From: Acaryochloris thomasi RCC1774
Lineage (GTDB): Bacteria > Cyanobacteriota > Cyanobacteriia > Thermosynechococcales > Thermosynechococcaceae
Length of the DNA stretch: 32,000 nt
Direction of reading: 5' to 3'
NCBI RefSeq assembly: GCF_003231495.1
Contig: NZ_PQWO01000004.1
Span: 210,001 to 242,000 of the forward strand
Both the position numbers and the translations under genes were made by a program. This document shows, piece after piece, positions 7,497 to 25,934 of the stretch. The stretch's first letter is position 1; each line of letters begins with the position of its first letter. The notes beneath the pieces were generated by a model. It saw nothing but the letters and a program-made list of their open reading frames with translations. It was not told where the DNA came from and ran no database searches.

Positions 7497-7594
7497 CCTT
7501 GTGTTCTAAGTTGCTGCTTGCTTTAGATCTCGCATTGATGTGCTGTTTGAGCACGTGGGTACTCTAGTCCAAGAGTCGAATACCTACTAGAGCC

Positions 7595-8308: not shown

Positions 8309-8322
8309 AGTCCAAGCAAATA

Positions 8323-9348
8323 TCAATACCGAATGCGGGGATCAATGTAGGCGTTCACAATATCGATCGCAATACTGGTAAGCACAACAATTAGTGCAAA
8401 AAAGACAATGACGCCCTGCACCGTGGGGTAGTCGCGATCGCCAATCGCTGCATAAAGACGATTGCCGAGCCCTGGCCAAGAGAACGTTACCTCTGTGAGC
8501 ACAGCACCCCCTAACATTGAGGCCGTTGTTAGCCCCAAAATGGTCACAACGGGAATCAAGGCATTACGTAGCGCGTGACTCAAAAGTACCCGCCGTTCAG
8601 GGATGCCCCTGGCTTTGGCCGCTTCAACATAATCGGCCCTCAGTGTTTGCTTGAGATTGACCCGAACAATACGCTCAAAGATACCGCTCAGCACCAGCCC
8701 TAACGTGAAGCTAGGCAGCGCTAAATAGTAGAGCGTGGCACCAAATGCCTCGAAATTACCGCTCAGGAGACTGTCAATGAGATATAGACCGGTCGGACCC
8801 TCGGGGGGAAGCATTCGAATCGGGAAACGAGTCCCGTTGGGAAACCAGCCCAGTTTGACGGCAAAGAGCAGCTTCAGCAACATGCCAGCCCAAAAAAGCG
8901 GTAGTGCGTAAGTGATGATGCCAAACAAACGTCCTCCTGCATCTAGAGCAGTGCCCGGACGAGAGGCCGAGAGCACACCTGCTCCAACGCCAATCAAGAG
9001 GGCAAACACCATGCTGCAGATCGCGAGTTCAGCGGTGGCGGGGAAAAAATCTTGAATAATATCCCAAACCGGCTGACCTCTGCTGGTGAGAGAAGTACCC
9101 AGATCGAAGCTCAGCAGGTGCTTGAGGTAGTCAAAGTATTGCTCGAGCAGTGGCTTTGCTAGCCCGAGCTGCTCCCGGACGAGAGCCTTTTGTGATTCTG
9201 GTGCGCGCGGCCCCAAGATTACGTCTACGGTGTCTCCGGGGGTCGCTCTCAGCAGTAAAAACACCACGGTGCTAATCACCCAGACCATAAGGGGAGCCAG
9301 CATGAGGCGGGTGATGATGTAGGCCTGGAGCGCATGGGAGCGAGACAT
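8323..9348 (-). CDS. ABC transporter permease, DppB/OppB (peptide/nickel) family
   Basis: 341 aa, multi-TM. N-terminus is YIITRLMLAPLMVWVISTVVFLLLRATPGD. EAA-type loop is ADYVEAAKARGIPERRVLLSHALRNAL. It starts 30 nt after the stop of the upstream binding-protein gene. Confidence 0.9.
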   Translation of the reverse strand: MSRSHALQAYIITRLMLAPLMVWVISTVVFLLLRATPGDTVDVILGPRAPESQKALVREQLGLAKPLLEQYFDYLKHLLSFDLGTSLTSRGQPVWDIIQDFFPATAELAICSMVFALLIGVGAGVLSASRPGTALDAGGRLFGIITYALPLFWAGMLLKLLFAVKLGWFPNGTRFPIRMLPPEGPTGLYLIDSLLSGNFEAFGATLYYLALPSFTLGLVLSGIFERIVRVNLKQTLRADYVEAAKARGIPERRVLLSHALRNALIPVVTILGLTTASMLGGAVLTEVTFSWPGLGNRLYAAIGDRDYPTVQGVIVFFALIVVLTSIAIDIVNAYIDPRIRY

Positions 9349-9378
9349 AGGGCGTTAACCTTCAATGTTTTTGAGGCT

Positions 9379-11070
9379 TTAGGATTTTTTGAGGGGCCAG
9401 AAGGGGAGATGTTGGGTCGGCTCCAATCGAATGCCTTTAACATTATCCTGGGCAAATGCGTACTCACGCCGCTGCCAGAGCGGAATATAGGGGACATCTT
9501 CCGCCACGATGTCTTGAATTTCTGCAAAAATCTTTTGTCGCTCCTGTGGATCTTGAGACTGGCGCTCTTGATCGATGAGTTGGTTCATGCGTTCTCGATA
9601 GTAAAACGACCCTTGCACAACCGTCGCTCCGGTCTGACAGCCCTCTTCTTCTGATCCTTTGCTGCAGGCTAAGAAGGGCTGGATATAGGTGTCAGGATCA
9701 TAAAAGTCTCCGGTGTAGTCGAGCATAAACAGGTTGTAACGCCCTTGATTTTGACTGATGTAAGCCTGTGCAGAGTCCATGCTCTCAAGATCTACGGTGA
9801 CCAAGCCATCAAGCTGTCGCTCTATTGATGATTTGATGGCTTGAGCGGCTGGAGCATCGCTCGGGACGTTACTGCGATAGCCAAGGGTCAGCTTGATGGA
9901 CTTGCTTTTGGAATAGCCTCCTGCTCTGAGCCGCTCCTTTGCCTGAGCTGCTGGGTTAATATCGGCGGCAGTCCGAAAAACAGACTTTGACTCTGGATAA
10001 ATACTGGGGATGAGGCTGTACAGTGGCTCTACCTGATCTCGAGAGATTCGATTTTGCAGACTTTGCCGGTCAATGACGAGAGCGATGGCCTGCCGTACTT
10101 CTATTTTGTTCAGCGGCGGATCTCGGAGGTTGAGGCTCAAGTAAGTGATGTTGCTGCCAGGACCGGTAATCGTTTGCCAGTCACCCGTTTGCTCTGCAGT
10201 ACTCACCAATACCCCGATTTGATCGGGGTTGAGGGATTGATAGGCAATATCCACTAGGCCGGAACGGAAGGCATTGTAGAGGCTGGCTGCGTTGTTGTAG
10301 CGTTTGACGGTGACGCTTTTGTTCTCAGGGGGGTCGCCCCAATACTGGTCAAAGGGGGTGAGCTTGAGGTTGTCTAGGGTATCGCTGGTCAGGCGATAGG
10401 GGCCTGTGCCTACAAATGTTGATCGCCGAAAGGTTTCGACCTGATCTGTATAGGCCTGGGGAGAAACGGGAGTCAGTCCCGAAAATGCAAGTAGGGCTGG
10501 GAAGGCGACAAAGGGCTTCTTTAAACGAATCTTGAGCTTATGAGATGCGATCTCATCTACTTTCTCTACCGTATCTGACAGCAGAAAGGAGGGCTGCCCG
10601 CCGTTATCAATAAACCGCTGCAGTGAAAAAGCCATCGCCTTGGCATCAAAAGGCGTCCCGTCATGGAACACAACATCTTGACGCAGATCGATTTGATACT
10701 CCAAACCATCCTCGCTAACCTCAGGCATTGCCGTTGCGAGCTGCGGCACAAGTTCGCCCTCTTTGTAGGTATAGAGGCGATCCCCGAGGTTGTAGAGCAA
10801 ATTGCCCGTGAACACTTTGTAGGCATCTGCCGGGTCCAGCGTGCGAATTTTGGCTGTGGTTCCCAGCGTCAGCGTACTAGTGATCGCGGGCGGACTAGTG
10901 CTTGGAGTCGGCGTCGGGCTGGGCGTTGGCGCAGAACTAAACCATTGGCGACAACCGACCGTCACGACCATGCAAAGACCGAATAAAGCGATAAGTAGCG
11001 GTCGCTGGAAAGCTGTGCTCCAGACGCTGCGACTCTGTAGTCTGCGTAACCATCGAGGGAGTTTTGCCAA
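9379..11070 (-). CDS. ABC transporter substrate-binding lipoprotein, family 5 (peptide/nickel type)
   Basis: 563 aa with a TTG start. A signal sequence with lipobox VTVGC is followed by a PT-rich linker (APTPSPTPTPSTSPP). Family-5 SBP-like body includes FHDGTPFDAKA and GTGPYRL. Confidence 0.88.
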   Translation of the reverse strand: MAKLPRWLRRLQSRSVWSTAFQRPLLIALFGLCMVVTVGCRQWFSSAPTPSPTPTPSTSPPAITSTLTLGTTAKIRTLDPADAYKVFTGNLLYNLGDRLYTYKEGELVPQLATAMPEVSEDGLEYQIDLRQDVVFHDGTPFDAKAMAFSLQRFIDNGGQPSFLLSDTVEKVDEIASHKLKIRLKKPFVAFPALLAFSGLTPVSPQAYTDQVETFRRSTFVGTGPYRLTSDTLDNLKLTPFDQYWGDPPENKSVTVKRYNNAASLYNAFRSGLVDIAYQSLNPDQIGVLVSTAEQTGDWQTITGPGSNITYLSLNLRDPPLNKIEVRQAIALVIDRQSLQNRISRDQVEPLYSLIPSIYPESKSVFRTAADINPAAQAKERLRAGGYSKSKSIKLTLGYRSNVPSDAPAAQAIKSSIERQLDGLVTVDLESMDSAQAYISQNQGRYNLFMLDYTGDFYDPDTYIQPFLACSKGSEEEGCQTGATVVQGSFYYRERMNQLIDQERQSQDPQERQKIFAEIQDIVAEDVPYIPLWQRREYAFAQDNVKGIRLEPTQHLPFWPLKKS

Positions 11071-11111
11071 GGGAATAATCGCTCCGATACGACTCTAGGC
11101 CAAATAGCACA

Positions 11112-11145
11112 ATACCGAGACGACCTGAATCAGCAGTCTCGGTAT
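11112..11145 (-). terminator. 10-bp stem hairpin downstream of the Pro-rich lipoprotein gene
   Basis: ATACCGAGAC (11112-11121), 14-nt loop, GTCTCGGTAT (11136-11145). It lies 76 nt after the stop at 11221. Only a weak T-run follows on the minus strand. Confidence 0.35.
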
Positions 11146-11220
11146 GGGTTGCTTAGCTATTGTATCGGGGAGTCTTACCCTTTTGTACTCAGAAAGGACG
11201 ACCCAAGCCTGAGGCTCGGA

Positions 11221-12018
11221 CTAGTTCAATCCGACTTTATACAAGCCCCGAACGGGAGCCTGAGAGCTGGCAGACGCGAGCACAATAGGCTCTTGACCAA
11301 CGCCGATGGCAACTTCCATGCCGGCCTCTTCAAAAATGGCCTTAGGCGCAACGGGGTTGCTCATGTCGAAGCCCTTCAGCAGAACCCGACCGTTAGCAAC
11401 CCGATCGCCGGAGCTGATCGTGCGAGCGGTCTTCTCTTCCGGTGCCTGGACGATGGCTTGCGGTCTGCCAGCCATCACGACAATTCCCTGAACCTGAACT
11501 TCTTTTGCCGCCGTAGGTTCGGGGGCTGGTAAAGGGGGAAGCACCGCTTTACCCGGAGAAGTACTCGGTGACGATTTAGGAGTAGCCGTACTGGGTGGGC
11601 TGAGGCGAGTGCTGCTGCCCCGCGTGGCTGCTGTCGACCTTGTTGTTGGTCTAGCACCTGGCGCTGTCCGCCCGCCGCTGCCGCCTGCGCTGGGACGAAC
11701 GCCAGAACCAGGGCGACTTTGAGGCTGAGCTGGCGAAACCAAAGGACGGAAGGGATCGGCCCGACCGCTCTGGATGGTGCGCACCCGTTCTTCAGGATCT
11801 GTTGGACGGATCAGGGCCACGGTGGCCGGGGCTGTTGTGCTCTGATCCACTGCAGCGATCGAGACAACCTCTGGAACTGATGTCGCCTCTACAGTGTCAG
11901 ACGGCACAGCTTTTGTATCTTTTGAAATGGCATTTGACTTTAGCTCACTGCCAGAATTGCATCCACTTAAAGCTATTGCCAGGAGCGTTAAGGTTACTCC
12001 AACTGCAGATCGACGCAT
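11221..12018 (-). CDS. Pro/Ser/Thr/Ala-rich lipoprotein with a PilP/GspC-like C-terminal beta domain (function unknown)
   Basis: The ATG at 12018 is preceded by AAGGAGGAG with a 5-nt spacer, so it is preferred over the ORF-track start at 12039. Signal peptide with lipobox LSGC. A ~130-aa low-complexity P/S/T/A/R region follows. C-terminus is VQVQGIVVMAGRPQAIVQAPEEKTARTISSGDRVANGRVLLKGF.... Confidence 0.7.
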   Translation of the reverse strand: MRRSAVGVTLTLLAIALSGCNSGSELKSNAISKDTKAVPSDTVEATSVPEVVSIAAVDQSTTAPATVALIRPTDPEERVRTIQSGRADPFRPLVSPAQPQSRPGSGVRPSAGGSGGRTAPGARPTTRSTAATRGSSTRLSPPSTATPKSSPSTSPGKAVLPPLPAPEPTAAKEVQVQGIVVMAGRPQAIVQAPEEKTARTISSGDRVANGRVLLKGFDMSNPVAPKAIFEEAGMEVAIGVGQEPIVLASASSQAPVRGLYKVGLN

Positions 12019-12247
12019 CTGCTCCTCCTTAAAGGTCACATCTAAAAAACTAACTGAAATATTCCCGATCAGCCAGTGACGGGCTTGAGAACTGGCTTTG
12101 CGCGATCAAGATCGCACCCCCAATCTAGAACCAGCTTTGTTTGACCGTACAATGCAGTCTAGATGTTAGCTCCATTGTACTCATGTCATTGAACAGCTTG
12201 GTCGCAATAATGGGCAGGGTCAACGGAGACCTGTACCTCTCAGGGAA

Positions 12248-13891
12248 ATGAGTAAGCAGCAGGGCAAGGTAGATATTGTTGGTGCTGGACCTGGGGGTCT
12301 AGCCTATCTAACCTTGGCTGGGAAAAGCCTGATTGTTCAGGCCGAGGTTCTTATTTATGATGCCCTGATCCATTCCGAAATATTAACTTTGGCGACAGAA
12401 GACTGTGTGCGTTTGTCAGTCGGCAAACGGGGAGGGCAGCCGAGCACGCCACAGGACCAGATTAACCAGCTTCTGGTCGAGCAGTGTCAGCAAGGTAAAC
12501 GGGTGGTGCGCTTAAAGTGCGGCGATCCTTTCATTTTTGGACGAACAGCGGCTGAGTTGCAGATGTTGAAAAGACATGGCTGTGCGGCCCAGGTGTGGCC
12601 GGGACTCTCTTCTGTGTTTACGGCTCCTTTGCTGGCGGGCATTCCGCTTACAGATGCGCGATTGAGCGGAAGTTTTGTCGTCATCAGTGGTCACGCGCCT
12701 GATCTCATCAACTGGTCGGCAGTGGCGCACATAGAGACTCTGGTGATTTTGATGGGCACCCAGACTTTATCGACAATCATTGAGCAGCTTTTGCGGCAGG
12801 GGCAAGATCCAGCCCGCCCCATCGCAATTATTCGTCGGGGTGGATGGCCGCAGCAGCAGGTTTGGGTGGGAACACTGGCAACAATTGAGCCGCAAATCCA
12901 AGGTGAAGTGCTGTCTCCGGCGGTTATTGTTGTGGGTGAGGTGGTCACTCTACGATCATCCTTGGAGGTTGCGGCTCCCAGCCATCTTCAATCTGCCGAG
13001 GATTTCAAGCGGGTGTCGCCAGCCAATGATGTCCTGCTGTCACGTTCTCTATCCATGACTGATGCCAATCGACCGCTTGCGGGTAAAACAGTCCTTGTGA
13101 CGCGCTCGGCGTCTCAGGCGAAAGGGTTTTGCGATCGCATCTCTACTGCCGGAGCCACGGTCCTAGAGATGCCCGCTATCGAGATTGTTCCGCCTTCTGA
13201 CTGGAGTGAATTGGATGATGCGATCGCAACCCTAGAAAAATTCCACTGGTTGATTCTCACCTCTGCCAACGGCGTCAACTACTTCTTAGATCGGCTAATC
13301 GAGAATGGGAAAGACTTGCGATCGCTCAGTCACCTCAAAATTGCTGTTGTGGGTCGCAAAACCGCCACCACCCTCAAAGAGAGAGGACTGCAGGCTGACT
13401 TTATCCCTCCCAGCTTTGTGGCCGACTCCCTAGTCGAACATTTCCCGCAGCAAGATCTTCGCGATCTACCCATGCTGTTCCCAAGGGTTGAAACCGGAGG
13501 GCGTGACGTATTGGTTGCTCAGTTCAAAGCTCAGGGGGCAGACATCACCGAAGCCCCTGCCTATCAATCACAGTGTACCCGCAGCATCAGCCCCTCAGTG
13601 CTAGAAGCGCTGCAGACGCGGTCTGTTGACGTGATTACCTTTGCCAGCTCTAAGACCGTTCAGTGCTTCTGTCAGCTTTTGCAGCATACCGCCACGGCTG
13701 CAGGACAAAACTGGCTGCAGTGGATTCAACAGGCTCAGATTGCCTCCATCGGTCCCCAAACCTCTGCCACCTGTGAACAGCTTCTGGGACGGGTCGATGT
13801 AGAAGCGTCAGAATATACGCTAGAAGGTCTAATACAAAGCATCTTGGATCACTGCATCAAGCCTGAAGCCAACATCTTGAATAAAGAATAG
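12248..13891 (+). CDS. cobA: Fused uroporphyrinogen-III C-methyltransferase / uroporphyrinogen-III synthase (CobA/HemD)
   Basis: The N-terminal ~245 aa is a tetrapyrrole methylase (VDIVGAGPGGLAYLTL, VVRLKCGDPFIFGR). The C-terminal ~270 aa is HemD-like (LAGKTVLVTRSASQA..., LILTSANGV, ITFASSKTV). Confidence 0.9.
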   Translation: MSKQQGKVDIVGAGPGGLAYLTLAGKSLIVQAEVLIYDALIHSEILTLATEDCVRLSVGKRGGQPSTPQDQINQLLVEQCQQGKRVVRLKCGDPFIFGRTAAELQMLKRHGCAAQVWPGLSSVFTAPLLAGIPLTDARLSGSFVVISGHAPDLINWSAVAHIETLVILMGTQTLSTIIEQLLRQGQDPARPIAIIRRGGWPQQQVWVGTLATIEPQIQGEVLSPAVIVVGEVVTLRSSLEVAAPSHLQSAEDFKRVSPANDVLLSRSLSMTDANRPLAGKTVLVTRSASQAKGFCDRISTAGATVLEMPAIEIVPPSDWSELDDAIATLEKFHWLILTSANGVNYFLDRLIENGKDLRSLSHLKIAVVGRKTATTLKERGLQADFIPPSFVADSLVEHFPQQDLRDLPMLFPRVETGGRDVLVAQFKAQGADITEAPAYQSQCTRSISPSVLEALQTRSVDVITFASSKTVQCFCQLLQHTATAAGQNWLQWIQQAQIASIGPQTSATCEQLLGRVDVEASEYTLEGLIQSILDHCIKPEANILNKE

Positions 13892-13916
13892 TGAACCTAA
13901 CTTTTTGCAGTGATTT

Positions 13917-13938
13917 AGATCACAGTAGTCTGTGATCT
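13917..13938. terminator. Perfect 9-bp hairpin between the convergent cobA/hemD and GHL10-like genes
   Basis: AGATCACAG, loop TAGT, CTGTGATCT. There is no adjacent U-tract, so a terminator role is uncertain. Confidence 0.3.
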
Positions 13939-14056
13939 CTAGCACAGCGACCCGTCACCCCGGCCGTCATGATACTTATGCCTTCTATAAGGTATACGCA
14001 ATACAAAACAGGGATTGTCAGATGTGGCGGTCCTTTTTTCTATGCTTTTGACGAAA

Positions 14057-15295
14057 TCAGGAATCCTGCACACTCTTTGAAACCAGGCGATTGACGTTGG
14101 CCGCAGTGGTCTCGGGCTTGCCGGAGAGCGGAAAAACCAACACGCTCTTAATGGCTTTATTCTCGATCAGCTCGGGTAGACGATGGAGCTGATTGTCGGT
14201 GATCGCAATGCCTGCATGTTTTCTGGCATATTCTAGCTCCTTGTCAAAATTAGCCTCGTTATAGGCCTGCACAAAGACGCGGTCCACATCCCAGTTTTTC
14301 CAGTCAGCAGCGAAATATCGTTTGGACCAGTAGGGGTTGTGGTGACAGAGATCGAAGCTCACATCAGGATTGACCTTTTTCATCGCCTGAATCATCGCTT
14401 GAGAAAATTTAGTCAGACTTTCTGTTCGATCGACATCTCCAGGGAGTTCGGCATGGTAGCCCAAGTAGTCGTCCCACTGAACCGCATCAATGGTGGGATA
14501 CTTTTGAGCAAACTCAGCCAGGATATCCCTGAAAAAATCAGACACCTCAGGATTTGCTACGTCTAGGACATGATGTTCGACATTACTGTAGGTGCGGTCA
14601 ATACCAGGAACCGTCCATTTCTGTGACATGGCTAAATCGAAAAGCGGACTGTTTTTATCGATCTTGATGCCTTTCTCAAAATAGGCATGAACCTGCATAT
14701 CTTGCTTATGGGCTTCATCTATGAGCCAGTCTAGCCACTGAGCTTGAAACTTATTGGGGCAGCTATCGTAGCCGAGCTTTTTTGCCATCACCTTGCTCTT
14801 GTACATGGTGCAGGCATTCCCCCAAACGCCGTGGAGAATGGTGTTAAATCCCTGGGAACGGTAGTAGCGGACTCTTTCGCGAATGGTTTCTTCCGAGGCG
14901 TTGTTGGTGACTTGATAGCGGCTCAGATAAATTCCTCGCATCTCTTTTTGATACCAAGGTGACTGAGGCTGGTCTCTCTCCTGCGGTGGCTTTGCTGTGA
15001 TCGTCTCGGGTGCCTTCTCAATCTCAGGTGGATCTGTGGCCGGAAGAATGGCGGTGGGGAGCGGCGTTGGCACCGGGGGCACTGCAGGAGTTGATGGATT
15101 TAGATTGACGGTTAGATCTAGAACCGGAAGCGTGAGGGTTTGATCGGGGGGGACGTATCGGCTGATCTCTCGATTTTGCGGTTGACTGAACCACCAATAT
15201 CCAGCCCCTAAGAAGAGCAGAATGACGGAGAAGGGAATACTGCCGCATCCGCAACCTTGGGGTTCTTTCTTTTGGCTCGCCATAATTCCGTTCAC
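14057..15295 (-). CDS. Glycoside-hydrolase-like protein (GHL10/DUF187, YngK-type) with an N-terminal membrane anchor and Pro-rich linker
   Basis: 412-aa ORF. GTG at 15295; an ATG at 15283 is a likely alternative start. TM segment is IPFSVILLFLGAGYWWF. P-rich spacer, then a TIM-barrel-like body: MRGIYLSRY..., GFNTILHGVWGNACTMYKS, DMQVHAYFEKG, DAVQWDDYLGY. Confidence 0.7.
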   Translation of the reverse strand: MNGIMASQKKEPQGCGCGSIPFSVILLFLGAGYWWFSQPQNREISRYVPPDQTLTLPVLDLTVNLNPSTPAVPPVPTPLPTAILPATDPPEIEKAPETITAKPPQERDQPQSPWYQKEMRGIYLSRYQVTNNASEETIRERVRYYRSQGFNTILHGVWGNACTMYKSKVMAKKLGYDSCPNKFQAQWLDWLIDEAHKQDMQVHAYFEKGIKIDKNSPLFDLAMSQKWTVPGIDRTYSNVEHHVLDVANPEVSDFFRDILAEFAQKYPTIDAVQWDDYLGYHAELPGDVDRTESLTKFSQAMIQAMKKVNPDVSFDLCHHNPYWSKRYFAADWKNWDVDRVFVQAYNEANFDKELEYARKHAGIAITDNQLHRLPELIENKAIKSVLVFPLSGKPETTAANVNRLVSKSVQDS

Positions 15296-15343
15296 CCTAG
15301 ATATTTTGTCGCTGGCTGTAGGAAAGCGTATCTCAACCAGTCC

Positions 15344-16096
15344 TTACTTTTGGACGCTCTTAAAAAAGGGCTGAGCTTGAAACTTCAGGCCTCCAGCAAT
15401 CAAAACGGTGGGGAAATCTCGTAGTGACTGATTGTAGATCTGGACTGCTTGGTTGTAGCGCATCCGCTCAGTGGCCATTCGGTTCTCGGTTCCGGCAATT
15501 TCGTACTGCAGGTTGATGAACAGTTCGTTGGATTGAAGGGAGGGATTGCGAGCGGTGATAGTTTGGAAGTTTGCGATCGCATCTTTCACCCCCCCATCTG
15601 CAGCCTGCTTCTGGGCAATCGTTTCCGCATTAAGAAAAGCAGTCTGGGCCTTCGCTAGCTCTTGAATCATCTGCTGTTCTGAACTGGCGTAGGACTGCGC
15701 CACCTGCGTTAGCTGTGGAATCAAATCAGCACGGCGCTGCATCTGGTTTTCTACCTGTGCCCATTTACCTTCGACGGTGGATTTTGAGGCGTTGAGAGAA
15801 TTGTAGGTTGCGCCAAACCAGATGGTTCCGAGGAGAGGGAGGAGAGTTGCGATCGCACCTCCGATCATCAAATACTGCCGCTGTTGTGTCTGACGCCGCT
15901 TTGCATCCTCCTGCTCTCGCTGAAGCTGTCTGTATGCCTGTTGAATCAGCTCGGCTGGAATCTGAGCTTCTGAACCTGCATCCATCAGTTCCTCAAGGGA
16001 GTAGCCCTCAGGGCCAGTATTCTGTAGATAAAGCTGGCCTGCCTTTTCTAGCACGACAGGAACGAGTTCTTCAGGAATGACGTTTTTAGAATTCAT
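15344..16096 (-). CDS. lemA: LemA family protein with a ~74-aa N-terminal cytoplasmic extension
   Basis: The ATG at 16096 is preferred; the ORF-track start at 16108 is a TTG. One TM (YLMIGGAIATLLPLLGTIWF). LemA core: GKWAQVENQMQRRADLIPQLTQVAQSYASSEQ...NRMATERMRYNQAVQIYNQSLRDFP. Confidence 0.9.
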   Translation of the reverse strand: MNSKNVIPEELVPVVLEKAGQLYLQNTGPEGYSLEELMDAGSEAQIPAELIQQAYRQLQREQEDAKRRQTQQRQYLMIGGAIATLLPLLGTIWFGATYNSLNASKSTVEGKWAQVENQMQRRADLIPQLTQVAQSYASSEQQMIQELAKAQTAFLNAETIAQKQAADGGVKDAIANFQTITARNPSLQSNELFINLQYEIAGTENRMATERMRYNQAVQIYNQSLRDFPTVLIAGGLKFQAQPFFKSVQK

Positions 16097-16146
16097 AGCA
16101 GGAAGCAAAATGGGTTAGCAAATCGAAATTAAAGAGAATCGGAGCA

Positions 16147-17871
16147 CTACCAGCTCCCGCCCGCACCACCGCCACCGCTGCTGCCCCCGCCGAAACTGGA
16201 GCCGCTGGAAGAACTACTGGAAGAACTACTGGAAGAGCTGGAAGAACTCGATGAGCTATAGCTATAGCTGCTGTAACTACTAGAAGAGCTGGAAGAAGAG
16301 CTAGAGCGGCGCGGAATAGCCACTCGTTTTTCAATTGTTTTGTCACAGCAGGCACAGTGTCTCGTCACCAGTCTTTCTCCCTCCACACGGGTTGTCGCAG
16401 GTGTGAGAACTTTTGATATTTTCGTCACTGTGAGGGCATCACAGTCGCTGCAGCGCTCAAATTTCTGGGACCGCATGACTTCAGAGAACAGGTGCAGATC
16501 AAAGCCATCCTGAGCCAGAACAGGACTGCAGGCCGGACACTGCCAACCTTCGTAAATCGTACTTTTGATTTTCTTCGCCGCTTGTTCTGCTGGCTTGAGA
16601 CGCTGTTGTAGAGCATCTTCCGCGAGGGGCTGCATGGGGCCATCGCACGATAAACACAGAACTTCGTTATGCTCACAGAGCGATCGCAACAGCCGTAGTG
16701 ACCCCGCACAGGCACCACCAAAAGCCGCCAAAAACAAGGAGGGTAGGAAAAAGAACTCCTCGAAGATGCTAAATATCACGAGCATCATAAACAAAGCTAC
16801 GAAACTAAACGTAAAGAGCGTAACCATAACGGTCTTTAGTGCTTTTCTTCCCTTAATATCGCGTTTAGCGCAGCACCAAAGCTCATAGCCGAACCAGGCC
16901 CAAATGAGCAGAAGCTTCAGCAGTATGCCTCCTGCAATTATGGAGGACACAACCCAAAGCCCCGCAAAAAGGCCAAACAAGGTCCACCAGCCTTGAAACA
17001 CTGTTCGGGTTGGATTAAGAACAATACCCAGCTTGAGGGGGCGTCGCTCTGTACCCTCCAAAGGCGAGCAGTCTCCGGCTAACCAACGGAGGCCCGCCAC
17101 CCACTGCCCTCTCCAGTCATCCGTTTTTACAGAGACTGTGCGCCCCAGCGGCGCAACTAAAATAGCCTGCTGCCCTCCCTTGAGCATTCTCTTTAGCTGC
17201 GCAGCTACGATGGCGACGAATACTACGGCCACAGCATTTGCACTGCTAAATAGCCCGCCTGTGTATCGATTGATTTGCTCTAAGGGTGTCGGTGGCTCAA
17301 AGATTTCGTTCTCTAACAAGGCGATCAGGGCTTGGGTTCCGTTGACGATACCCTCATCAAAGTTGCCCTGCTTAAACTGTGGCGTCACTTCAAGCCTTAT
17401 GATTTTGCCCACCCTTGCATCGGGTAAGATTCCTTCTACGCCATAGCCTGTTTCGATTTCCGTGCGGCGATCGCCCTTAGAAACCATAAACAAAACCCCA
17501 TTGTCTACCCCTTTTTTGCCAATTCCCCAGGTCTTGAATAGCTCTGTTGTGAACGTTTTGGGCGATGCTGAGGGCTGCGTATCCGGTACGGTGACCACCG
17601 CAATCTCTGCACCATTGGTGGCTTCCAGGGCTGAGAGCATCTGATTGAGCTGATCTTCACTGCTGGGACTGAGCAGATTGGCCATATCTGTGACCCAGAC
17701 GTTGTTTTGACGCGGGTTGGGAACGGCAGACACTTCAATGGCTTGGCTGGGAACAAGCGATGACAGTAAGAAGCTGAGACCTAGGCCCAAGGCAAAGGTC
17801 GGCAAGATGCGATAGCAATATCTCAATTGGTTTAGAAGCACGGTTGCAGAAATAGAGTGTTCGAGAGGCAA
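16147..17871 (-). CDS. TPM-domain membrane protein, paralogue B (signal anchor, TPM, about 5 TM, double CxxC zinc-ribbon-like module, poly-Ser, Gly tail)
   Basis: The TPM/YgcG core is WVTDMANLLS...GAEIAVVTVPD...FTTELFKTWGIGKKGVDNGVLFMVSKGDRRTEIETGYG...LPDARVG. The C-terminus GGGSSGGGGAGGSW is the hallmark YgcG-type tail. The start is uncertain: TTG at 17871 or GTG at 17841. There is no ATG before the signal peptide. Confidence 0.85.
   Translation of the reverse strand: MPLEHSISATVLLNQLRYCYRILPTFALGLGLSFLLSSLVPSQAIEVSAVPNPRQNNVWVTDMANLLSPSSEDQLNQMLSALEATNGAEIAVVTVPDTQPSASPKTFTTELFKTWGIGKKGVDNGVLFMVSKGDRRTEIETGYGVEGILPDARVGKIIRLEVTPQFKQGNFDEGIVNGTQALIALLENEIFEPPTPLEQINRYTGGLFSSANAVAVVFVAIVAAQLKRMLKGGQQAILVAPLGRTVSVKTDDWRGQWVAGLRWLAGDCSPLEGTERRPLKLGIVLNPTRTVFQGWWTLFGLFAGLWVVSSIIAGGILLKLLLIWAWFGYELWCCAKRDIKGRKALKTVMVTLFTFSFVALFMMLVIFSIFEEFFFLPSLFLAAFGGACAGSLRLLRSLCEHNEVLCLSCDGPMQPLAEDALQQRLKPAEQAAKKIKSTIYEGWQCPACSPVLAQDGFDLHLFSEVMRSQKFERCSDCDALTVTKISKVLTPATTRVEGERLVTRHCACCDKTIEKRVAIPRRSSSSSSSSSSYSSYSYSSSSSSSSSSSSSSSSSSGSSFGGGSSGGGGAGGSW
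16150..16311 (-). repeat. Low-complexity Ser/Tyr/Gly-coding tract at the 3' end of TPM paralogue B
   Basis: It encodes RRS10YSSYSYS19GSSFGGGSSGGGGAGGSW. The DNA contains a tandem GGAAGAACTACT x2 and related GGAAGAGCT units. Confidence 0.7.
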
Positions 17872-17974
17872 AGAAAAACTGCTGAGTCAAGATGACAAGC
17901 TAGTTCTAGGGTTCCCCAGATCGAAGCTGTACTTGAGGAACTGCAATTTTGCAAAATTGAGCATCGCCTTGTCG

Positions 17975-19957
17975 TTACCAGCTTCCGCCCGCACCACCGC
18001 CGCCGCTGGAGCCGCCTCCAAAGCTGCCGCCACTACTGCCGCCAGAAGAACCACCAGCACTTCCTCCCGAGCTATAGCTACCGCTAGACCCGCTCGAATA
18101 ACTTGAACTCGAAGAAGAACTACGTCTGACTTTGGGTTTGGGCTTGCGCTTCTGCCAACGTTTGATGTTTTCATAGCCACACAAATGACAAGTTTCCGTG
18201 CGGTAGTAGTAGATGTGAATCAAATCCCCAGATTTGCGCTGTGTCGTTTCGCTCTCTAAGGTATCGGCTTTACACTCGGGGCAGTCAGTCTTGGACTTGC
18301 GGAAACGGCGTTTTAGATAAGCGGTGCCGGGACGCTGCTCAGGATGACAATGCTGACAGCTATAAGCCTGATATTTGATATTGCCGATATCGATCGCGAT
18401 CGCCTCTGCTTTACTTAAGCTTTCAGGGTGCAGCGTTGCTTTTCTCACTTGCTCAGAGAGGGTCAAGCCACGCTTGCCGAGACCAAAGCCACAGTCTCGG
18501 CAAGCGGTTTGTTTCTCTAGATGTTGTTTTTGAAAAGAAAGCCAGAGCTGCCGTAAGAGGTTGGCTAAATAGATAGACACCACCAATGAAAAAGCAGCGG
18601 AGATCTGTGCTGAAGTCACATCGGGAGCAAACGTGCTACTTGGTTCAGTCGCTGCCGTCAAGGCGGGGATAGTATAAAAGAGGAAACAGAGGATGCCGAT
18701 TACCACCAGAGCAGAATTGACACATCCAGAGGCCGAAGACGTCTTAAAGAAGGTCTTGGCTGACCAGGGTTTCAGCTCACGCTGCCGACAAAACTTGGAT
18801 TGCAGTTGAGCCACTCTGCAGGCCGTCAATCTCAATATTAACGACTGTCCCTTGATTAAACCCACAAATGCAGCAGGAATAGCCAGGAGAATCCAGGGAG
18901 TTTGCGATCGCATCAAAGCCACAATGGCCCATCCCATCAAACCTGCGCTGAGAGTCGCTAGTCCCACCCCTGCCAAACCGCCATAGCTATACATGCTCCA
19001 TCCAAGCGGAGGCAATTGAATGGCGGCAGCCTGTAGCCTTACCCCTTCATTTAATTGTTGCTCCTGGGAATGGCCTCCAGTCGAGAGGCTATGGGGAGTG
19101 AGCTGCGCAGCCTTCAATCGACTTTGAACACGATTTAGGAAACAAACTAACCCCAGAATCGAGAGCAATCCCCCAGAGACTGAAAGTTGCTTATAGAGTG
19201 GCAAGCGTTGCTGTTGTTCCGCCTCCAACTCCACCCGCCGTCGCGCCTCAGCCAGTGATCGCTCCTGTTGACGCTGACGTTCTACTTGTCTCTGTTTTTC
19301 TCGTTTCTGTTGATACTGAAGCCGCCGTTTTGCTTGTTCTTCCTTGTAAAGTTTTTCCTGATGTCGCGCCACTGCCAAGGCAGCTGCCTTTTGGGTTAAA
19401 GGCTCCGAAATACTATCTGGCAGCTTCAGATCTGGGGCAATTCCCAAAACCACGGCCAGAGTCCCGTTGACAATCCCTGTCTCATAGGCCTCACGCTTAA
19501 ACTCTGGAATCATCTCGGTGCGAATGATTGCCCCGACCTTTGCATCGGGCAAAATTGCTTCCATCCCGTACCCTGTCTCAATCTCAACTCGACGATCGCC
19601 CTTCGATACCATCACCAGCACACCGTTATCTTGCCCCTCTTTCCCAATCCCCCAGGTATTAAACAGTTCTGTAGTAAAGGCTTTAGGAGAAGCAGAGGGC
19701 GCAACATCAGGCACCGTCACGACGGCCACTTCTGCGCCATTGTTCTCTTCTAGCTGGGTGAGTAAAGCATTGAGCTGAGCTTCTGCATTGTCGCTAAGCA
19801 GATTAGCTTGATCTGAGACCCAACCCCCATTTGCCTGTCGCGGATTCACCACATCAGAAATTTGAATCGCAGTGCTGGGCAGCACGAGGGCTAGCAAGAA
19901 ACTCAGACCTAAAACAAACCCTATTGGGGCGCGGTGTCCCATTCGTTGAGGGAGCAT
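17975..19957 (-). CDS. TPM-domain membrane protein, paralogue A (signal anchor, TPM, ER/K-rich helix, about 5 TM, double CxxC zinc-ribbon-like module, poly-Ser, Gly tail)
   Basis: The TPM core is about 70% identical to paralogue B by eye (WVSDQANLLS...GAEVAVVTVPD...FTTELFNTWGIGKEGQDNGVLVMVSKGDRRVEIETGYG). It has the same GGGSSGGGGAGGSW end. The start is set at ATG 19957 (MLPQRMGHRAPIGFVLGLSFLL...). The ORF-track start at 20059 would overlap the upstream lipoprotein gene. Confidence 0.85.
   Translation of the reverse strand: MLPQRMGHRAPIGFVLGLSFLLALVLPSTAIQISDVVNPRQANGGWVSDQANLLSDNAEAQLNALLTQLEENNGAEVAVVTVPDVAPSASPKAFTTELFNTWGIGKEGQDNGVLVMVSKGDRRVEIETGYGMEAILPDAKVGAIIRTEMIPEFKREAYETGIVNGTLAVVLGIAPDLKLPDSISEPLTQKAAALAVARHQEKLYKEEQAKRRLQYQQKREKQRQVERQRQQERSLAEARRRVELEAEQQQRLPLYKQLSVSGGLLSILGLVCFLNRVQSRLKAAQLTPHSLSTGGHSQEQQLNEGVRLQAAAIQLPPLGWSMYSYGGLAGVGLATLSAGLMGWAIVALMRSQTPWILLAIPAAFVGLIKGQSLILRLTACRVAQLQSKFCRQRELKPWSAKTFFKTSSASGCVNSALVVIGILCFLFYTIPALTAATEPSSTFAPDVTSAQISAAFSLVVSIYLANLLRQLWLSFQKQHLEKQTACRDCGFGLGKRGLTLSEQVRKATLHPESLSKAEAIAIDIGNIKYQAYSCQHCHPEQRPGTAYLKRRFRKSKTDCPECKADTLESETTQRKSGDLIHIYYYRTETCHLCGYENIKRWQKRKPKPKVRRSSSSSSSYSSGSSGSYSSGGSAGGSSGGSSGGSFGGGSSGGGGAGGSW
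17978..18127 (-). repeat. Low-complexity Ser/Gly-coding tract at the 3' end of TPM paralogue A
   Basis: It encodes RRSSSSSSSYSSGSSGSYSSGGSAGGSSGGSSGGSFGGGSSGGGGAGGSW. The last ~30 nt are nearly identical (27/30 by my alignment) to the 3' end of paralogue B. Confidence 0.7.
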
Positions 19958-20007
19958 TGATTTCAAAGATTTATGAGAACAGTAGAGGACTCTGATGGCC
20001 ACAGTTT

Positions 20008-20484
20008 TTATGCGGCAGGTTGTGAGGTCAATTCCTCTGGGGCCGTCCCGTTTTTGCAATAGCTTTGCGTCGCATTGAATGTGGACACGAATGATTGGGA
20101 TGCCGCTGTATTTTGTGCGATCACAGCTTGGGCCTGCGGGCTGTCGTCGAAACTGCCGCTTGGACCTGAAAGCTGGGCCAGTTGGAGAGTGGCTTGACTT
20201 TGCTCTCGCATGGATTGAGCTAGGTGCGATCGCAAATTGCTCAGTTTTTTATCGTCTAGCTTCAATGCGTCTAAATCAGTCGCTGTTTGGGTTGCTAGCT
20301 TCGATAGCGTAGATAGACCACCCGGCTTATCCATCAGGGAGGGCGTGACTGAAGACAAGCTGTTGACAATATCTCCGACTTTCTGGCATTGCGCCACTTT
20401 GGTTTCGCCTCCGCAAGCGTTGATCAGACCGGCGCATAGGAGCATCGAGCATAGCAAGGCAGACGATAGACGCTGTGTTCTCAT
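20008..20484 (-). CDS. Small lipoprotein of unknown function; first gene of the TPM/LemA cluster
   Basis: ATG at 20484 (or 20493) gives MRTQRLSSALLCSMLLCAGLINAC, a signal peptide with a lipobox Cys. The mature part is Q/S/A/L-rich and looks helical. The longer ORF-track form (20586) adds a non-signal N-terminus. Confidence 0.6.
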   Translation of the reverse strand: MRTQRLSSALLCSMLLCAGLINACGGETKVAQCQKVGDIVNSLSSVTPSLMDKPGGLSTLSKLATQTATDLDALKLDDKKLSNLRSHLAQSMREQSQATLQLAQLSGPSGSFDDSPQAQAVIAQNTAASQSFVSTFNATQSYCKNGTAPEELTSQPAA

Positions 20485-20991
20485 CGAATTCATCCGATTC
20501 CAGTGTTTTAGGGAGTGTGCCCACTGGAACGATCGTTGAGAACACTGAGAAACTTGATCTGCCGCATTGTTGGGAAATCTATACAACAGATTAAATATGC
20601 GCCGCTTATTCAGGGATCGATCTACAATTCAAAACTTATACCCAAATCAGTTCATCCTCGGGACTGAATAAAACTCCAGCGAAGCTTTAGTTCACTCATT
20701 AACTACAGGAGTTTTTACGTCACGAATGTCAGCGTTTTGAACCATTGCCCACGGCTGAGCCTGATCCAGAAAGCGATCCTAAGAAATGGATTCTCCTTGC
20801 TTAAGTCAAGCAGCCAGCACTCAATCTGAAGTTTAGATTCAGTAGAAATTATCTCCCCATTGCCCGTAAAGACCTTTAAGCCCTTGGCTACTTCTATCTC
20901 ACGATCGCCTTGACCCATTTGCCTTACTGAGGCGCTAGGATACCAACAAGGCAATAAGTATTTATACCTACTAAAGTACAAAGGAGCGCTC

Positions 20992-22614
20992 ATGACTGTT
21001 GCTGTTTCTAAAGCAGTTGACACCAGCCCAGCCCAAGAGGCATCAACTCAGACTCAGCTTGTGGTGGGAATTCCCAAAGAGGTTTTTCCCGGAGAGTGCC
21101 GCGTTGCCGCTACGCCAGAAACATCACAAAAGCTGCAAAAGCTTGGCTTCAAGGTCCTGATCGAATCCGGTGCCGGTGCCGCCGCTAATTTTTCAGATAC
21201 CGCCTATGAAGAGGCCGGTTGTCACATCGTTTCTGACGCTGCAACCCTCTGGGGATCGTCAAAAATCATCCTCAAGGTGCGCGCGCCACAGGTGAATCCT
21301 GCTTCCAGTCAGCATGAGTCAGAGCTGCTCACCGAAGATAAAACGCTGATTAGCTTTATTTGGCCTGCTCAAAATGCTGAGTTGCTAGAACAGCTTGCTG
21401 CTCGCAAAGCAACCGTCCTGGCAATGGACTCGATCCCCAGAATCTCGCGGGCGCAGAAAATGGATGCCCTTAGCTCGATGGCAAACATTGCCGGGTATCG
21501 AGCCGTGATTGAGGCTGCTCAAAACTTTGGTCGCTTTTTCACTGGACAAATCACTGCTGCGGGTAAAGTGCCGCCAGCGAAAGTGCTGGTAATTGGTGCA
21601 GGCGTGGCGGGTCTCGCGGCCATTGGTGCCGCCCGTAGCTTGGGTGCAATTGTGCGAGCCTTTGATACGCGACCTGTTGTCAAAGAACAGGTTCAAAGCA
21701 TGGGGGCTGAATTCTTAGAGCTTGAGTTTGAAGAAGATGGCACAGGCCAGGGTGGCTATGCCAAAACGATGAGTAAAGAGTTCATCGACGCAGAAATGGC
21801 GCTGTTTTTAGAGCAGGCCCATGACGTCGATATCATCGTCACTACCGCACTGATTCCTGGTCGTCCAGCGCCGAAGCTGATCACCGAAGAAATGGTAAAC
21901 GCCATGAAAGATGGCTCTGTGATTGTCGATATGGCGGCAGAGCAGGGCGGTAACTGTGAGCTAACGAAGCCCAACGAAATTTATTGCCACAACGGGGTTT
22001 CCATTCTGGGTCTAACGGATCTACCTAGCCGGATGGCGAGTCAGTCCAGTCAGCTGTACGGCACCAACCTCTGGCATCTGCTCAAGGATATGGGCGGCTC
22101 TGACAACTACAATGTCAATTTTGAAGACGAGGTGGTGCGGGGCGCGTTGGTCATGCACGAAGGTGAGATCACTTGGCCTGCCCCTAAGCCTGAACCCAGT
22201 CCGGCGGCGGCAGCTCCAGCGCAAAAAGCTGAGGTCCAAGCACCGACTGCAGTGGTTGAAGCTGAACCGTTTCCTTTAAAAGGTTTGCTGTGGCCTGTAT
22301 TAGCAGGTCTAGCGTTAGTGGGCGTTGGTATTGGTGCACCGCCATCTTTCCTCTCGCACTTCACCGTGTTTGTGTTGGCCTGTTTTGTGGGCTGGCAGGT
22401 GATCTGGAATGTTTCTCCAGCCTTGCATACGCCTTTGATGAGTGTGACCAACGCCATTAGCGGCATTATTATTCTCGGCGGAATGCTCCAGATTTCGGGG
22501 CCGCTGACCTCGCCGACGACTGTTTTAGGTGCGATCGCAATTCTAGTGGGCACCATCAATATCTCCGGGGGCTTTTTGGTCACCCAACGAATGCTGCAGA
22601 TGTTCCGTAAGTAG
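20992..22614 (+). CDS. pntA: NAD(P) transhydrogenase subunit alpha (PntA; dI plus membrane dII-alpha)
   Basis: 540 aa. AlaDH/PNT N-terminal domain, Rossmann motif [17 protein letters not shown], and C-terminal TM helices. AAGGAG lies 6 nt upstream of the ATG. Confidence 0.95.
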
Positions 22615-24361: not shown

Positions 24362-24853
24362 CTACGGCTGAAAAAGTTTAGGCTGCAACAACCACCGAAG
24401 AACCCCTTGCCCACAGGTAACCTGTTGCCAAATATCGACATCAAAATCGATCCGCGCTATTGCTCCCGTAGGGAAGCGGAGCTGTCCCCCTCCAATCAGC
24501 TGTGATGCTAAAGCTGAGCAAGTGGGTTCGTGGCCTGCTAACAGCAAAGTATTGATCTCGATAGCGACCTGATGAATGATAGTCAGAACCTGGGTAGGGC
24601 TAGCCTCATAAAGCTGATTGGTGACCTGGACTGGACAGCCCCATTGTCCCGCCTGCAGGGCTAGCTCCACTGTTCGTTTGGCTCTGACAGCAGAAGAAGT
24701 AATCACGAGATCGGGTGTTGCATTGCTCAATAGACGACCCATTGTTTTGGCGGTTTCAATACCCCGCTTTGTGAGGTTGCGATCGCAATCCTTTTTATAA
24801 ACCGCACTCCAGTCAGACTTACCGTGACGAAAAAGGATGAGTTTCTTACTCAT
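24362..24853 (-). CDS. sixA: SixA-like histidine phosphatase superfamily protein
   Basis: The ATG at 24853 (MSKKLILFRHGKSDW) is preceded by AGGGG with a 5-nt spacer. It lies 13 nt after the upstream stop. RHG and GHEP catalytic motifs are present. The ORF-track start at 24883 would overlap the upstream gene. Confidence 0.85.
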   Translation of the reverse strand: MSKKLILFRHGKSDWSAVYKKDCDRNLTKRGIETAKTMGRLLSNATPDLVITSSAVRAKRTVELALQAGQWGCPVQVTNQLYEASPTQVLTIIHQVAIEINTLLLAGHEPTCSALASQLIGGGQLRFPTGAIARIDFDVDIWQQVTCGQGVLRWLLQPKLFQP

Positions 24854-24866
24854 AAATACCCCTGCT

Positions 24867-25934
24867 TTAGGCCGTAAAAGCAACCTGAATAAGCTGTGAG
24901 TCAGGTGGGGGTACCTGCACGTTTCGAGGACGAGTCCGAATGAGATAGTAACCTTTAGTAGGAAAGGGAGGAACCGTCACGGTTTCTTGCTCAATCTTGG
25001 TGTAAAACAGGGGCAGGCTAGAACGGCTATAGAGCGTGAAGTAAATATCGTAGTTTTGTAACGCCGTAGGGTGCAGGGAGAGAGAGAGAGCCTGCTGCGC
25101 TTCAACATAGTCATAGAAAAAGGCTGTGTCAGGATTGCCCACGGGTAGATATTCTCGGGTGACAAAGGCCTCTGGCAGCCAGGGGCGAAGCTGAAGGAGC
25201 GTATAGATATAGTAGTGAAGTGCAAGATAAAACCCGTTGTGGCGATCGCTTAGATGGCGATAAAACGCATTGGTCTCTGCAGAAGCCGTCTGGGCATTGA
25301 TAGTGGGCGGCTCTGACGATGATGGGTTTTCGGTGTCGGCAGGAGTTTGATCATCGGCTCCTGGCGCAACGGTGACGGCATCGGCCTGAACGCTGGGGAA
25401 TTCAACAGCTCCCGAACATTCGTAATATCGGAGGGCCAAACTATATTTTCCGGGTGCGACTTTGAGGGTGTGCTGTAGCTCTGCACCCTGTTCGAGTGAG
25501 CTGAGCTGGGCCACGGTGGCATAGTCAGGATAGCGATAAACAACAATGGTCCAGGATTGCGCCGATTGGCGCGGAGGAGTCAGGTCAATCGAAATAGCTT
25601 CCTGAGCAGCAAAAGGACCGACGGTGCCAATGATGGCGTGGGTGTTCCAGCGGGGGCCTTTGGTCATCAGCACCGGGAGCACGATGGGAATGCTCAACAC
25701 GTCGGTAGAGAGAACCTGCCACTGGGTCGCTCGGTTGCGATCTCGACTCAAATAAATCCCATAGAAAAGCCCAATCAACGTCTTCACGACCTTGAAAAAG
25801 CAAAAGGACAGCACGGCCAAGGGAAGTTCCCAGAGCAGAGAAAGCGGCAGGGGACGCCTAGTGTTGCTCACGGGTTTGAACCTCTGCCGAGTCCAGAAGA
25901 GCCAAAATCTGCTGAGATAGCTCTGCGGATGCAT
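24867..25934 (-). CDS. Hypothetical membrane-anchored protein, no family recognised; overlaps the 3' end of the PKS gene
   Basis: 355-aa ORF. N-terminal hydrophobic segments are LPLAVLSFCFFKVVKTLIGLFYGIYL and VLSIPIVLPVLM. A Tyr-rich soluble body follows. ATG at 25934 overlaps ols by 77 nt. An in-frame GTG at 25871 would overlap by 14 nt. The start is uncertain. Confidence 0.65.
   Translation of the reverse strand: MHPQSYLSRFWLFWTRQRFKPVSNTRRPLPLSLLWELPLAVLSFCFFKVVKTLIGLFYGIYLSRDRNRATQWQVLSTDVLSIPIVLPVLMTKGPRWNTHAIIGTVGPFAAQEAISIDLTPPRQSAQSWTIVVYRYPDYATVAQLSSLEQGAELQHTLKVAPGKYSLALRYYECSGAVEFPSVQADAVTVAPGADDQTPADTENPSSSEPPTINAQTASAETNAFYRHLSDRHNGFYLALHYYIYTLLQLRPWLPEAFVTREYLPVGNPDTAFFYDYVEAQQALSLSLHPTALQNYDIYFTLYSRSSLPLFYTKIEQETVTVPPFPTKGYYLIRTRPRNVQVPPPDSQLIQVAFTA

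Follow-up and report, generated by a model that had tools for sequence, protein, structure and literature searches.

A LemA-TPM locus with zinc-ribbon TPM proteins and an N-terminally extended LemA in Acaryochloris thomasi RCC1774

Few bacterial membrane proteins without an agreed function are as widespread as LemA and the TPM/YgcG proteins. In the cyanobacterium Acaryochloris thomasi RCC1774, genes for both lie in a cluster of five co-directional minus-strand genes, at positions 14057-20484 of a 32,000-nucleotide (nt) stretch of contig NZ_PQWO01000004.1 (positions 210,001 to 242,000; this whole stretch is here referred to as the window). The five genes encode a lipoprotein-like protein, two TPM domain proteins (TPM-A and TPM-B), a LemA family protein, and a family 10 glycosylhydrolase (GHL10), and a first-pass annotation of this DNA had read them as one envelope system spanning the membrane. 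The present analysis narrows that hypothesis to the unit that evolution keeps together, i.e., TPM-A, TPM-B, and LemA, with the GHL10 gene and the lipoprotein-like gene as chance neighbours, and it cautions against a functional reading of such hydrolase and orphan neighbours. On balance, TPM-A, TPM-B, and LemA probably constitute a LemA-TPM (YgcG-type) locus, of a subtype with zinc-ribbon TPM proteins and an N-extended LemA, that would act as a trans-membrane scaffold maintaining membrane complexes, with GHL10 and the orphan gene separate from it.

This delimitation is carried by gene neighbourhoods. A set of 82 TPM-centred loci (78 from a GTDB scan of one genome per species with a full-length TPM alignment, plus 4 contig look-ups) was searched with all five window proteins, and neither GHL10 nor the lipoprotein-like gene was present in any of the 82, even at E<=0.01. 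Likewise, TPM, LemA, the zinc ribbon described below, and the lipoprotein-like gene were found in none of 82 GHL10-centred loci (80 metagenome and two genome loci, 910 kb in total). GHL10 orthologues at 69-77% identity are located in unrelated contexts, e.g., in a 77%-identical relative and in Acaryochloris sp. bin.148, and the five-gene arrangement is kept only in the near relatives L087, L088, and L084, so that it does not qualify as a conserved operon. Other genomes do not preserve the neighbourhood, which was the refuting condition set out beforehand, and the five-gene reading thus fails as a description of one conserved system. Among the 57 TPM loci that could be assessed, 34 have LemA next to TPM (20 of the 35 in cyanobacteria and 14 of the 22 in other phyla), and these are distributed over cyanobacteria, Armatimonadota, Myxococcota/Bradymonadales, Calditrichia, and Poribacteria. 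Adjacency across such distant taxa identifies a LemA-TPM two-gene module and bears out the earlier remark that this pairing is widespread. No third conserved neighbour of TPM and LemA was detected within 6 kb, the next commonest family being present in 7 loci only. At one locus (L002 of Pleurocapsa sp. PCC 7319, positions 5255-17713), TPM and LemA lie among genes for exosortase EpsH, HpsJ, a GNVR tyrosine-kinase-type protein, and a Wzt ABC transporter; this association with exopolysaccharide genes did not recur in the other loci.

All features of the cluster that are given below are on the minus strand. The TPM-A gene (C1752_01716, public name 'TPM domain-containing protein') spans positions 17975-19957, with a maximal open reading frame (ORF) to 20059, and its product of 655-660 amino acids (aa) is an exact match of WP_233501472.1; the TPM-B gene spans 16147-17871 and encodes 574 aa. 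Both proteins belong to the Pfam TPM family (PF04536), with E 8e-39 for TPM-A and E 2e-41 for TPM-B, and with 133 and 142 bits against a gathering cut-off of 22.1. TPM-A is laid out as a signal peptide, the TPM domain (19451-19819), a long charged helix that is placed outside the membrane between the TPM domain and the first transmembrane (TM) helix (19205-19363), about five TM helices, a double zinc ribbon, predicted to be cytoplasmic, that holds 8 Cys (18179-18502), and a Ser/Gly tail (17978-18127) whose last residues are GGGGAGGSW. TPM-B likewise carries a signal peptide in front of its TPM domain (17320-17694; residues 53-186 of the AlphaFold2 model), followed in the model by TM1 (residues 196-232), a presumably cytoplasmic beta-hairpin with a PxGR(S/T) motif (17128-17163; residues 237-248), an inserted bundle of four TM helices (16669-17013; residues 287-401), a beta-rich double zinc ribbon (16315-16662; residues 404-519), and a Ser-rich tract with the tail FGGGSSGGGGAGGSW (16150-16305). 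This model, with five TM helices, reached a mean predicted local distance difference test (pLDDT) of 83.8, rising above 90 in the zinc module, and ends in a disordered Ser tract followed by a short strand. With Foldseek, the TPM fold of TPM-B was matched with probability 1.00 and TM-scores of 0.83-0.88 to 2kw7, 5anp, and 7tbr, and the TPM fold was also matched to BA41, PG_0361, Rhom172_1776, Psb32, TLP18.3, and AscF. The first-pass annotation was thus right that both TPM proteins are enlarged (574-660 aa), namely by extra TM helices and eight conserved Cys. As a side observation, the TPM-B Ser tract (16205-16269) is encoded by tandemly repeated short units, with 12-, 9-, and 6-nt periods, which could make its length polymorphic.

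Alignments of 21 and later 60 homologues, in which the layout was seen in 23-61 proteins, show what is constant in this family. Both window proteins are of the YgcG type, with a signal peptide, TPM domain, TM anchor, and Gly-rich tail, and this arrangement is kept in 61 homologues. The homologues share a signal peptide that carries the cleavage motif P-S-x-A, the TPM domain, one TM helix, the motif P-x-G-R-(S/T), and a Cys module of about 120 residues, in which eight conserved Cys are arranged as four pairs and the columns of TPM-A and TPM-B align; a Ser-rich tract and the tail FGGGSSGGGGAGxSW then close the protein. The TPM domain itself carries the near-invariant stretch RRxEIETGYGxE..LPDA. 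The common cyanobacterial form has about 400 aa and is without the four added TM helices of TPM-B, which follow the PxGR(S/T) hairpin and precede the first zinc knuckle; since the number of inserted helices is even, the zinc module would stay on the same side of the membrane. Counts of Lys and Arg in the loops (positive-inside) predict the TPM domain outside and the zinc module in the cytoplasm. The best relatives of TPM-B are Acaryochloris proteins annotated as 'YgcG family' (50-56% identity), and relatives of the TPM-A type occur at loci L017, L039, and L005. Some relatives also bear the Pfam accession PF27609. TPM-A and TPM-B are 68% identical in the TPM domain and unalignable elsewhere, and they are old paralogues. 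The proposed tandem duplication thus stands as far as two adjacent TPM genes are concerned, and a recent duplication is ruled out, the TPM domain alone being alignable.

The zinc-ribbon module gave generic zinc-finger matches in the local Pfam search, all of them sub-threshold. Modelled as a stand-alone unit, it reached a pLDDT of 87.9, and Foldseek against the PDB returned nothing better than E 0.19, with local similarities to NrdR- or ZPR1-like single ribbons only. A profile of the module was run against 1.84 billion representative proteins. With a cut-off of E<=1e-3 it yielded 1617 matches, and with one of E<=1e-10 it yielded 801 clusters; among 95 sampled full-length carriers, 81 contain a TPM domain and one contains WD40 repeats. 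TPM proteins from Armatimonadota, Bradymonadales/Myxococcota, and further phyla carry the module as well. A. thomasi is accordingly not alone in having the long TPM architecture, which belongs to a large family with generic annotation only. This variant, i.e., zinc-ribbon TPM with a multi-TM insertion next to an N-extended LemA, is widespread in the databases, and as far as could be found the literature holds no paper describing either the zinc-ribbon TPM family or the LemA N-terminal extension. Its architecture, with a zinc ribbon that is almost always fused to TPM, a TM insertion, and a LemA extension, offers handles in the form of defined domains, membrane faces, and partners. One carrier, P0030 (554 aa), has two zinc modules, each after its own PxGRS motif, and further double-match proteins were returned by the profile search, which suggests from sequence that hairpin and zinc ribbon form one structural unit.

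The LemA gene (C1752_01714, 'LemA family protein') spans 15344-16096 (or 16108) and encodes 250 aa. Its product was matched by Pfam LemA (PF04011) at E 3e-38, with 131.6 bits against a cut-off of 26.2, and it aligns with the Thermotoga structure 2etd over residues 107-251 (E 4e-28). The protein consists of a conserved N-terminal helical extension of about 55 residues (15917-16081), a single TM helix (15815-15871; residues 80-98), and a four-helix-bundle domain (15356-15766). The extension follows the pattern IPEE..a.eVlelAsrlY...sYS..EL..AG.E..IP.EfI.qA. and recurs in conserved form across cyanobacteria, Armatimonadota, Poribacteria, and Bradymonadales. Its identity between A. thomasi and other Acaryochloris amounts to 76%, no lower than in the LemA domain (68-71%). 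It had no Pfam match and no sequence relative in the PDB. Basic residues precede the TM helix, and the positive-inside count places the N-terminus in the cytoplasm, while the C-terminal domains of LemA and MamQ have been predicted to be extracytoplasmic (PMC3905215). On these two grounds, the extension would be cytoplasmic and the four-helix bundle would share a compartment with the TPM domains. The idea of a system that spans the membrane accordingly holds for the TPM and LemA part, with TPM and LemA domains predicted outside and zinc ribbon and LemA extension predicted inside (positive-inside counts, AlphaFold2, PMC3905215), and is abandoned for the GHL10 and lipoprotein parts.

The LemA extension and a zinc-ribbon TPM co-occur in 40 of 47 loci, a count from which no correlation is claimed, as the sample was chosen on zinc-ribbon-type TPM and has almost no negative class. 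Apart from this, the extension profile matched non-LemA ORFs near TPM genes, with E 1e-6 to 2e-5 (minus strand in each case: L076, 6951-9002; L010, 12076-12786; L016, 18719-19201), and the extension may thus occur as a domain in other proteins. LemA itself matched the phage family phrog_1383, labelled 'virion structural protein', at E 1e-17; LemA-like proteins would therefore also be encoded by phages.

Most unexpectedly, the TPM genes proved hypervariable even when the genomes compared were otherwise nearly identical. Locus L087, from the metagenome-assembled genome (MAG) P01_A01_bin.17, has only one TPM gene, together with pntA, the lipoprotein-like gene, LemA, and GHL10, and these four neighbours encode proteins with 97-98% identity to their window counterparts. 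Its single TPM protein is of the TPM-A type and only 57% identical (82-88% in the TPM domain and 12-60% elsewhere), and TPM-B is absent. When positions 16150-20000 of the window were compared with 2039-3745 of L087, nucleotide identity fell from 95-99% to 81-84% exactly at the start of TPM-A, reached about 50% in the middle of this island, and recovered in the region that codes for the Ser/Gly tail of TPM-B. The same junction was found in L088, an independent second contig. In the distal part of pntA (window 21350-21950), identity to L087 is 85-89%, with adjacent segments at 95-99%, and the backbone shared with L087 is judged from these alignments to be a recombination mosaic. Locus L084 keeps the order TPM / LemA / GHL10 / cobA-hemD, with a GHL10 85% identical to that of the window. 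Its positions 1-530 hold stop-interrupted remnants of TPM-A and of the C-terminal half of LemA, beside intact GHL10 and cobA-hemD, as would be expected if about 3.8 kb had been deleted between the middle of TPM-A and the middle of LemA. Other Acaryochloris genomes contain 2-5 TPM paralogues, some of them truncated, upstream of one LemA gene. TPM genes thus turn over rapidly; LemA and the flanks do not.

The GHL10 gene (C1752_01713, 'family 10 glycosylhydrolase') spans 14057-15283 (or 15295) and encodes 408 aa. It is a member of the GHL10 family (PF02638, DUF187/UPF0748; E 4e-23, 82.3 bits against a cut-off of 27.9), although the Pfam alignment covers profile positions 1-169 of 311 only. Behind an N-terminal membrane anchor (15188-15256) and a linker rich in Pro comes the TIM-barrel domain (14096-14944). 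Its W-D-D-Y motif (14465-14476) is invariant in 22 orthologues and aligns with the FDDY motif of Cwp19, the best PDB match. The D-D-Y of this motif corresponds to the proposed active site Asp195/Asp196/Tyr197 of Cwp19 (PMC5765458), a lytic transglycosylase (PMC6016235). Within the family, DigH (YddW) works at the septum of E. coli, where it breaks down denuded peptidoglycan glycans (PMC12288456), and DogH acts on starch (PMC9967864). A total of 1195 homologues was found; cyanobacterial orthologues are 60-85% identical, and relatives are annotated as 'YddW (UPF0748)'. The protein is therefore most likely, as judged from sequence, a membrane-anchored periplasmic peptidoglycan-glycan hydrolase that would act apart from TPM and LemA, and its gene is a separately conserved pan-cyanobacterial housekeeping gene, not part of the module. 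The motif G-C-G-C (15245-15256; residues 10-13 of 408) is invariant in all 22 cyanobacterial orthologues; it directly precedes the anchor, on the cytoplasmic side, and is thus not a lipobox.

The lipoprotein-like gene (C1752_01717, 20008-20484, 158 aa in RefSeq, 'hypothetical protein') encodes an N-terminal hydrophobic signal with the sequence ...LLCAGLINAC followed by GG. Its lipobox L-I-N-A-C has Asn at -2, outside the usual [LVI][ASTVI][GAS]C, and a signal peptidase I site at I-N-A is equally possible. There was no match in Pfam, NCBIfam, PADLOC, or PHROGs, a search of 5.8 billion proteins returned the protein itself as the only homologue, and its cluster consists of A. thomasi, the MAG P01_A01_bin.17, and one Logan contig only. 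It is a species-restricted orphan and a neighbour outside the conserved module. Given its absence from all 82 TPM loci, with no homologue beyond A. thomasi and near-identical MAG copies, it is no dedicated lipoprotein of the system, as had been supposed.

The earlier gene calls are upheld: five co-directional minus-strand ORFs lie where they had been placed, and ORF calls and Pfam back the domains named. The window was matched to the genome through the four locus tags given above, and the annotated starts of GHL10, LemA, TPM-A, and the lipoprotein-like gene are exact matches in the database, in which the 574-aa TPM-B sequence is not present. The predicted bounds also stood, with pntA (20992-22614, plus strand) divergent upstream and cobA-hemD (12248-13891, plus strand) convergent downstream. 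By ORF coordinates, the divergent intergenic region between the lipoprotein-like gene and pntA is 507 nt long (20485-20991); it is 94-98% identical to L087 and presumably holds the promoters. A promoter scan gave no consensus sigma-70 match in this region, and in the consensus scans promoter- and terminator-like sites were rarer than in shuffled sequence. No Rfam family was matched in the whole window. Elsewhere in the window, the ORFs at 7595-8308 (plus strand, 237 aa) and 11221-12039 (minus strand, 272 aa) have no Pfam family at E<=1e-5. A large polyketide synthase (PKS) module at 25858-31992 (minus strand), which runs past the window end, has the domain order KS-AT-KR-ACP-sulfotransferase-thioesterase, which we take to be that of CurM/Ols-type terminal-olefin synthases; its neighbours are a DUF6208 gene (24867-25934) and a His_Phos_1 gene (24362-24883).

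How TPM-A, TPM-B, and LemA might work together can be proposed by analogy with Psb32/TLP18.3, AscF, MOLO-1, and YdjH-PspA. In this proposal, the periplasmic or lumenal face would be where TPM domains and LemA bundle come together. A platform in the cytoplasm would consist of the zinc ribbons, the hairpin with PxGR(S/T), the Ser/Gly tract and its invariant GGGGAGxSW end, and the LemA extension. The three proteins would thus make up a hetero-oligomeric trans-membrane scaffold that may help to assemble, stabilise, or repair membrane protein complexes or the membrane, and its cytoplasmic modules could act as docking or regulatory sites. Psb32/TLP18.3 is a non-catalytic TPM accessory of photosystem II and serves as a repair and assembly factor; AscF is a TPM subunit of the mycobacterial CIII-CIV supercomplex and binds neither metal nor nucleotide (PMC13456599); MOLO-1, as cited in that paper, is a TPM accessory of an acetylcholine receptor; and TPM has been proposed to be a chaperone-like assembly factor (PMC11237479; PMC12419801). 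The ydjFGHL operon combines TPM with zinc-ribbon proteins and PspA (PMC11237479). In Flavobacterium columnare, lemA and a TPM gene are induced upon deletion of signal peptide peptidase (PMC13236525), which is consistent with a link to membrane stress. On these analogies, a role in the maintenance of membrane complexes or the membrane is favoured with modest confidence. The former statement that no member of the cluster has a defined biochemical role was overstated, given DigH and Cwp19 for GHL10, and Psb32/TLP18.3 and AscF for TPM.

Several observations weigh against this scaffold proposal and lead to the alternatives. LemA is not beside TPM in about 40% of the assessable loci, and the five genes may be co-transcribed in A. 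thomasi, as they are separated by 38-103 nt (maximal ORFs) or 50-103 nt (annotated starts) and a consensus scan detected no convincing intrinsic terminator inside the cluster. The latter point speaks for a reading in which all five genes are one operon-encoded envelope system in this lineage, with the lipoprotein and GHL10 working with TPM and LemA extracytoplasmically. Each of the five products has a predicted location in the membrane or outside the cytoplasm, L087 preserves the order lipoprotein / TPM / LemA / GHL10, and L084 still shows TPM remnant / LemA remnant / GHL10. Such synteny, however, is seen only where the flanking proteins are 85-98% identical and so carries no functional information. 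Together with the two reciprocal searches without a single joint locus, the pan-cyanobacterial GHL10 in its unrelated contexts, the destruction of TPM and LemA beside an intact GHL10 in L084, and the orphan status of the lipoprotein-like gene, this makes a five-gene system very unlikely.

The scaffold proposal is also challenged by the TPM domain itself, whose polar motif RRxEIETGYGxE..LPDA resembles a ligand-binding or catalytic site more than a passive scaffold, and by hydrolase activities reported for BA41 and TLP18.3. The TPM proteins could thus be extracytoplasmic phosphatases or nucleotidases that are controlled from the cytoplasm through the zinc ribbon, with LemA as cofactor or regulator. 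Solved relatives include BA41 (reported ATPase/ADPase) as well as TLP18.3 and Rv2345 (reported acid phosphatases), a charged cluster is near-invariant (K119, R135, R136, E138, E140, Y143, E146, D151), and the TPM domain is far more conserved than the remaining protein. Yet such activities as have been reported are weak and contested, comparative studies speak against a phosphatase (PMC11237479, PMC12419801), and Psb32 and AscF, the latter without metal or nucleotide binding, are structural subunits of complexes; an enzymatic role is considered unlikely. A further difficulty is the TPM hypervariability, which would not be expected of a housekeeping assembly factor; if it reflects selection and not drift, the role of the module may be one in conflict or adaptation rather than in housekeeping. 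The TPM array could then be a fast-evolving conflict or surface-interaction locus (e.g., for phage interaction, exclusion, or toxin handling), with LemA as constant partner and the TPM proteins as exchangeable cassettes. The divergence from MAG P01_A01_bin.17, in which identity drops at the TPM borders between near-identical flanks, the deletion remnant in L084, the variable and partly truncated paralogues of Acaryochloris, and the phage homologues of LemA fit such a locus. Against it, known or candidate defence systems were not matched in PADLOC, where the sole weak match was of LemA to LmuB (coiled-coil type, E 0.0018) and does not establish defence membership, and PHROGs matched LemA only. 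Moreover, variability is highest in the TM and cytoplasmic regions and conservation highest in the exposed TPM domain, the window cluster has no mobile-element genes at its flanks, and the backbone is itself mosaic, as in distal pntA, so that a conflict locus is quite unlikely. A wider reading of the same variability, speculative and rather improbable, is that zinc-ribbon TPM and N-extended LemA form a distinct multi-phylum module in which the middle parts of cassette-like TPM proteins (TM/zinc ribbon) would be swapped, added, or deleted by recombination between the conserved coding sequences of TPM domain and Gly tail. Strain diversity would then be under diversifying selection, possibly driven by phage or toxin pressure or by a need to match variable client complexes, and zinc ribbon and LemA extension would jointly provide the interface for signalling or docking in the cytoplasm.

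Under the favoured scaffold reading, the locus can be set beside several known systems. GHL10, outside the module, resembles DigH and Cwp19 of Clostridioides difficile in family and in its D-D-Y motif, but has a TM anchor with GCGC instead of a lipoprotein signal or cell-wall-binding repeats. With Psb32/TLP18.3, the TPM proteins share a TPM domain that is lumenal in Psb32, a membrane anchor, cyanobacterial occurrence, and fold matches (8c7i, 9i83, 3pvh), whereas Psb32 has about 200-230 aa, lacks zinc ribbon and Gly tail, and is not LemA-linked; orthology to Psb32 was rejected, with 63.2 and 66.5 bits against the NF047379 equivalog cut-off of 160. Like MamQ, the magnetosome member of the LemA family, the window LemA combines a cytoplasmic N-terminal segment, one TM helix, and a lumenal four-helix bundle as predicted, and orthology was again rejected (60.2 bits against the NF040966 cut-off of 250; no magnetosome context). 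The ydjFGHL operon of Bacillus subtilis is similar in its TPM protein with a low-complexity tail (YdjH), its associated membrane-proximal zinc ribbons, and its membrane-stress context. It differs in that the zinc ribbons are on separate proteins (YdjG, YdjL) and PspA takes the place of LemA as partner; the window genes include neither PspA nor a band-7 gene. Finally, the LemA-TPM pairs of BA41/BA42 of Bizionia argentinensis and E. coli YgcG share with the window the signal peptide, TPM domain, anchor, and Gly-rich tail, LemA next door, and commonly tandem TPM genes, and the best fold matches are BA41 (5anp) and PG_0361 (2kw7). To our knowledge, YgcG and BA41 have neither a zinc ribbon nor a TM insertion; unlike them, the TPM proteins of the window carry a predicted cytoplasmic double zinc ribbon and a four-helix TM insertion, and their LemA partner has a 55-residue extension.

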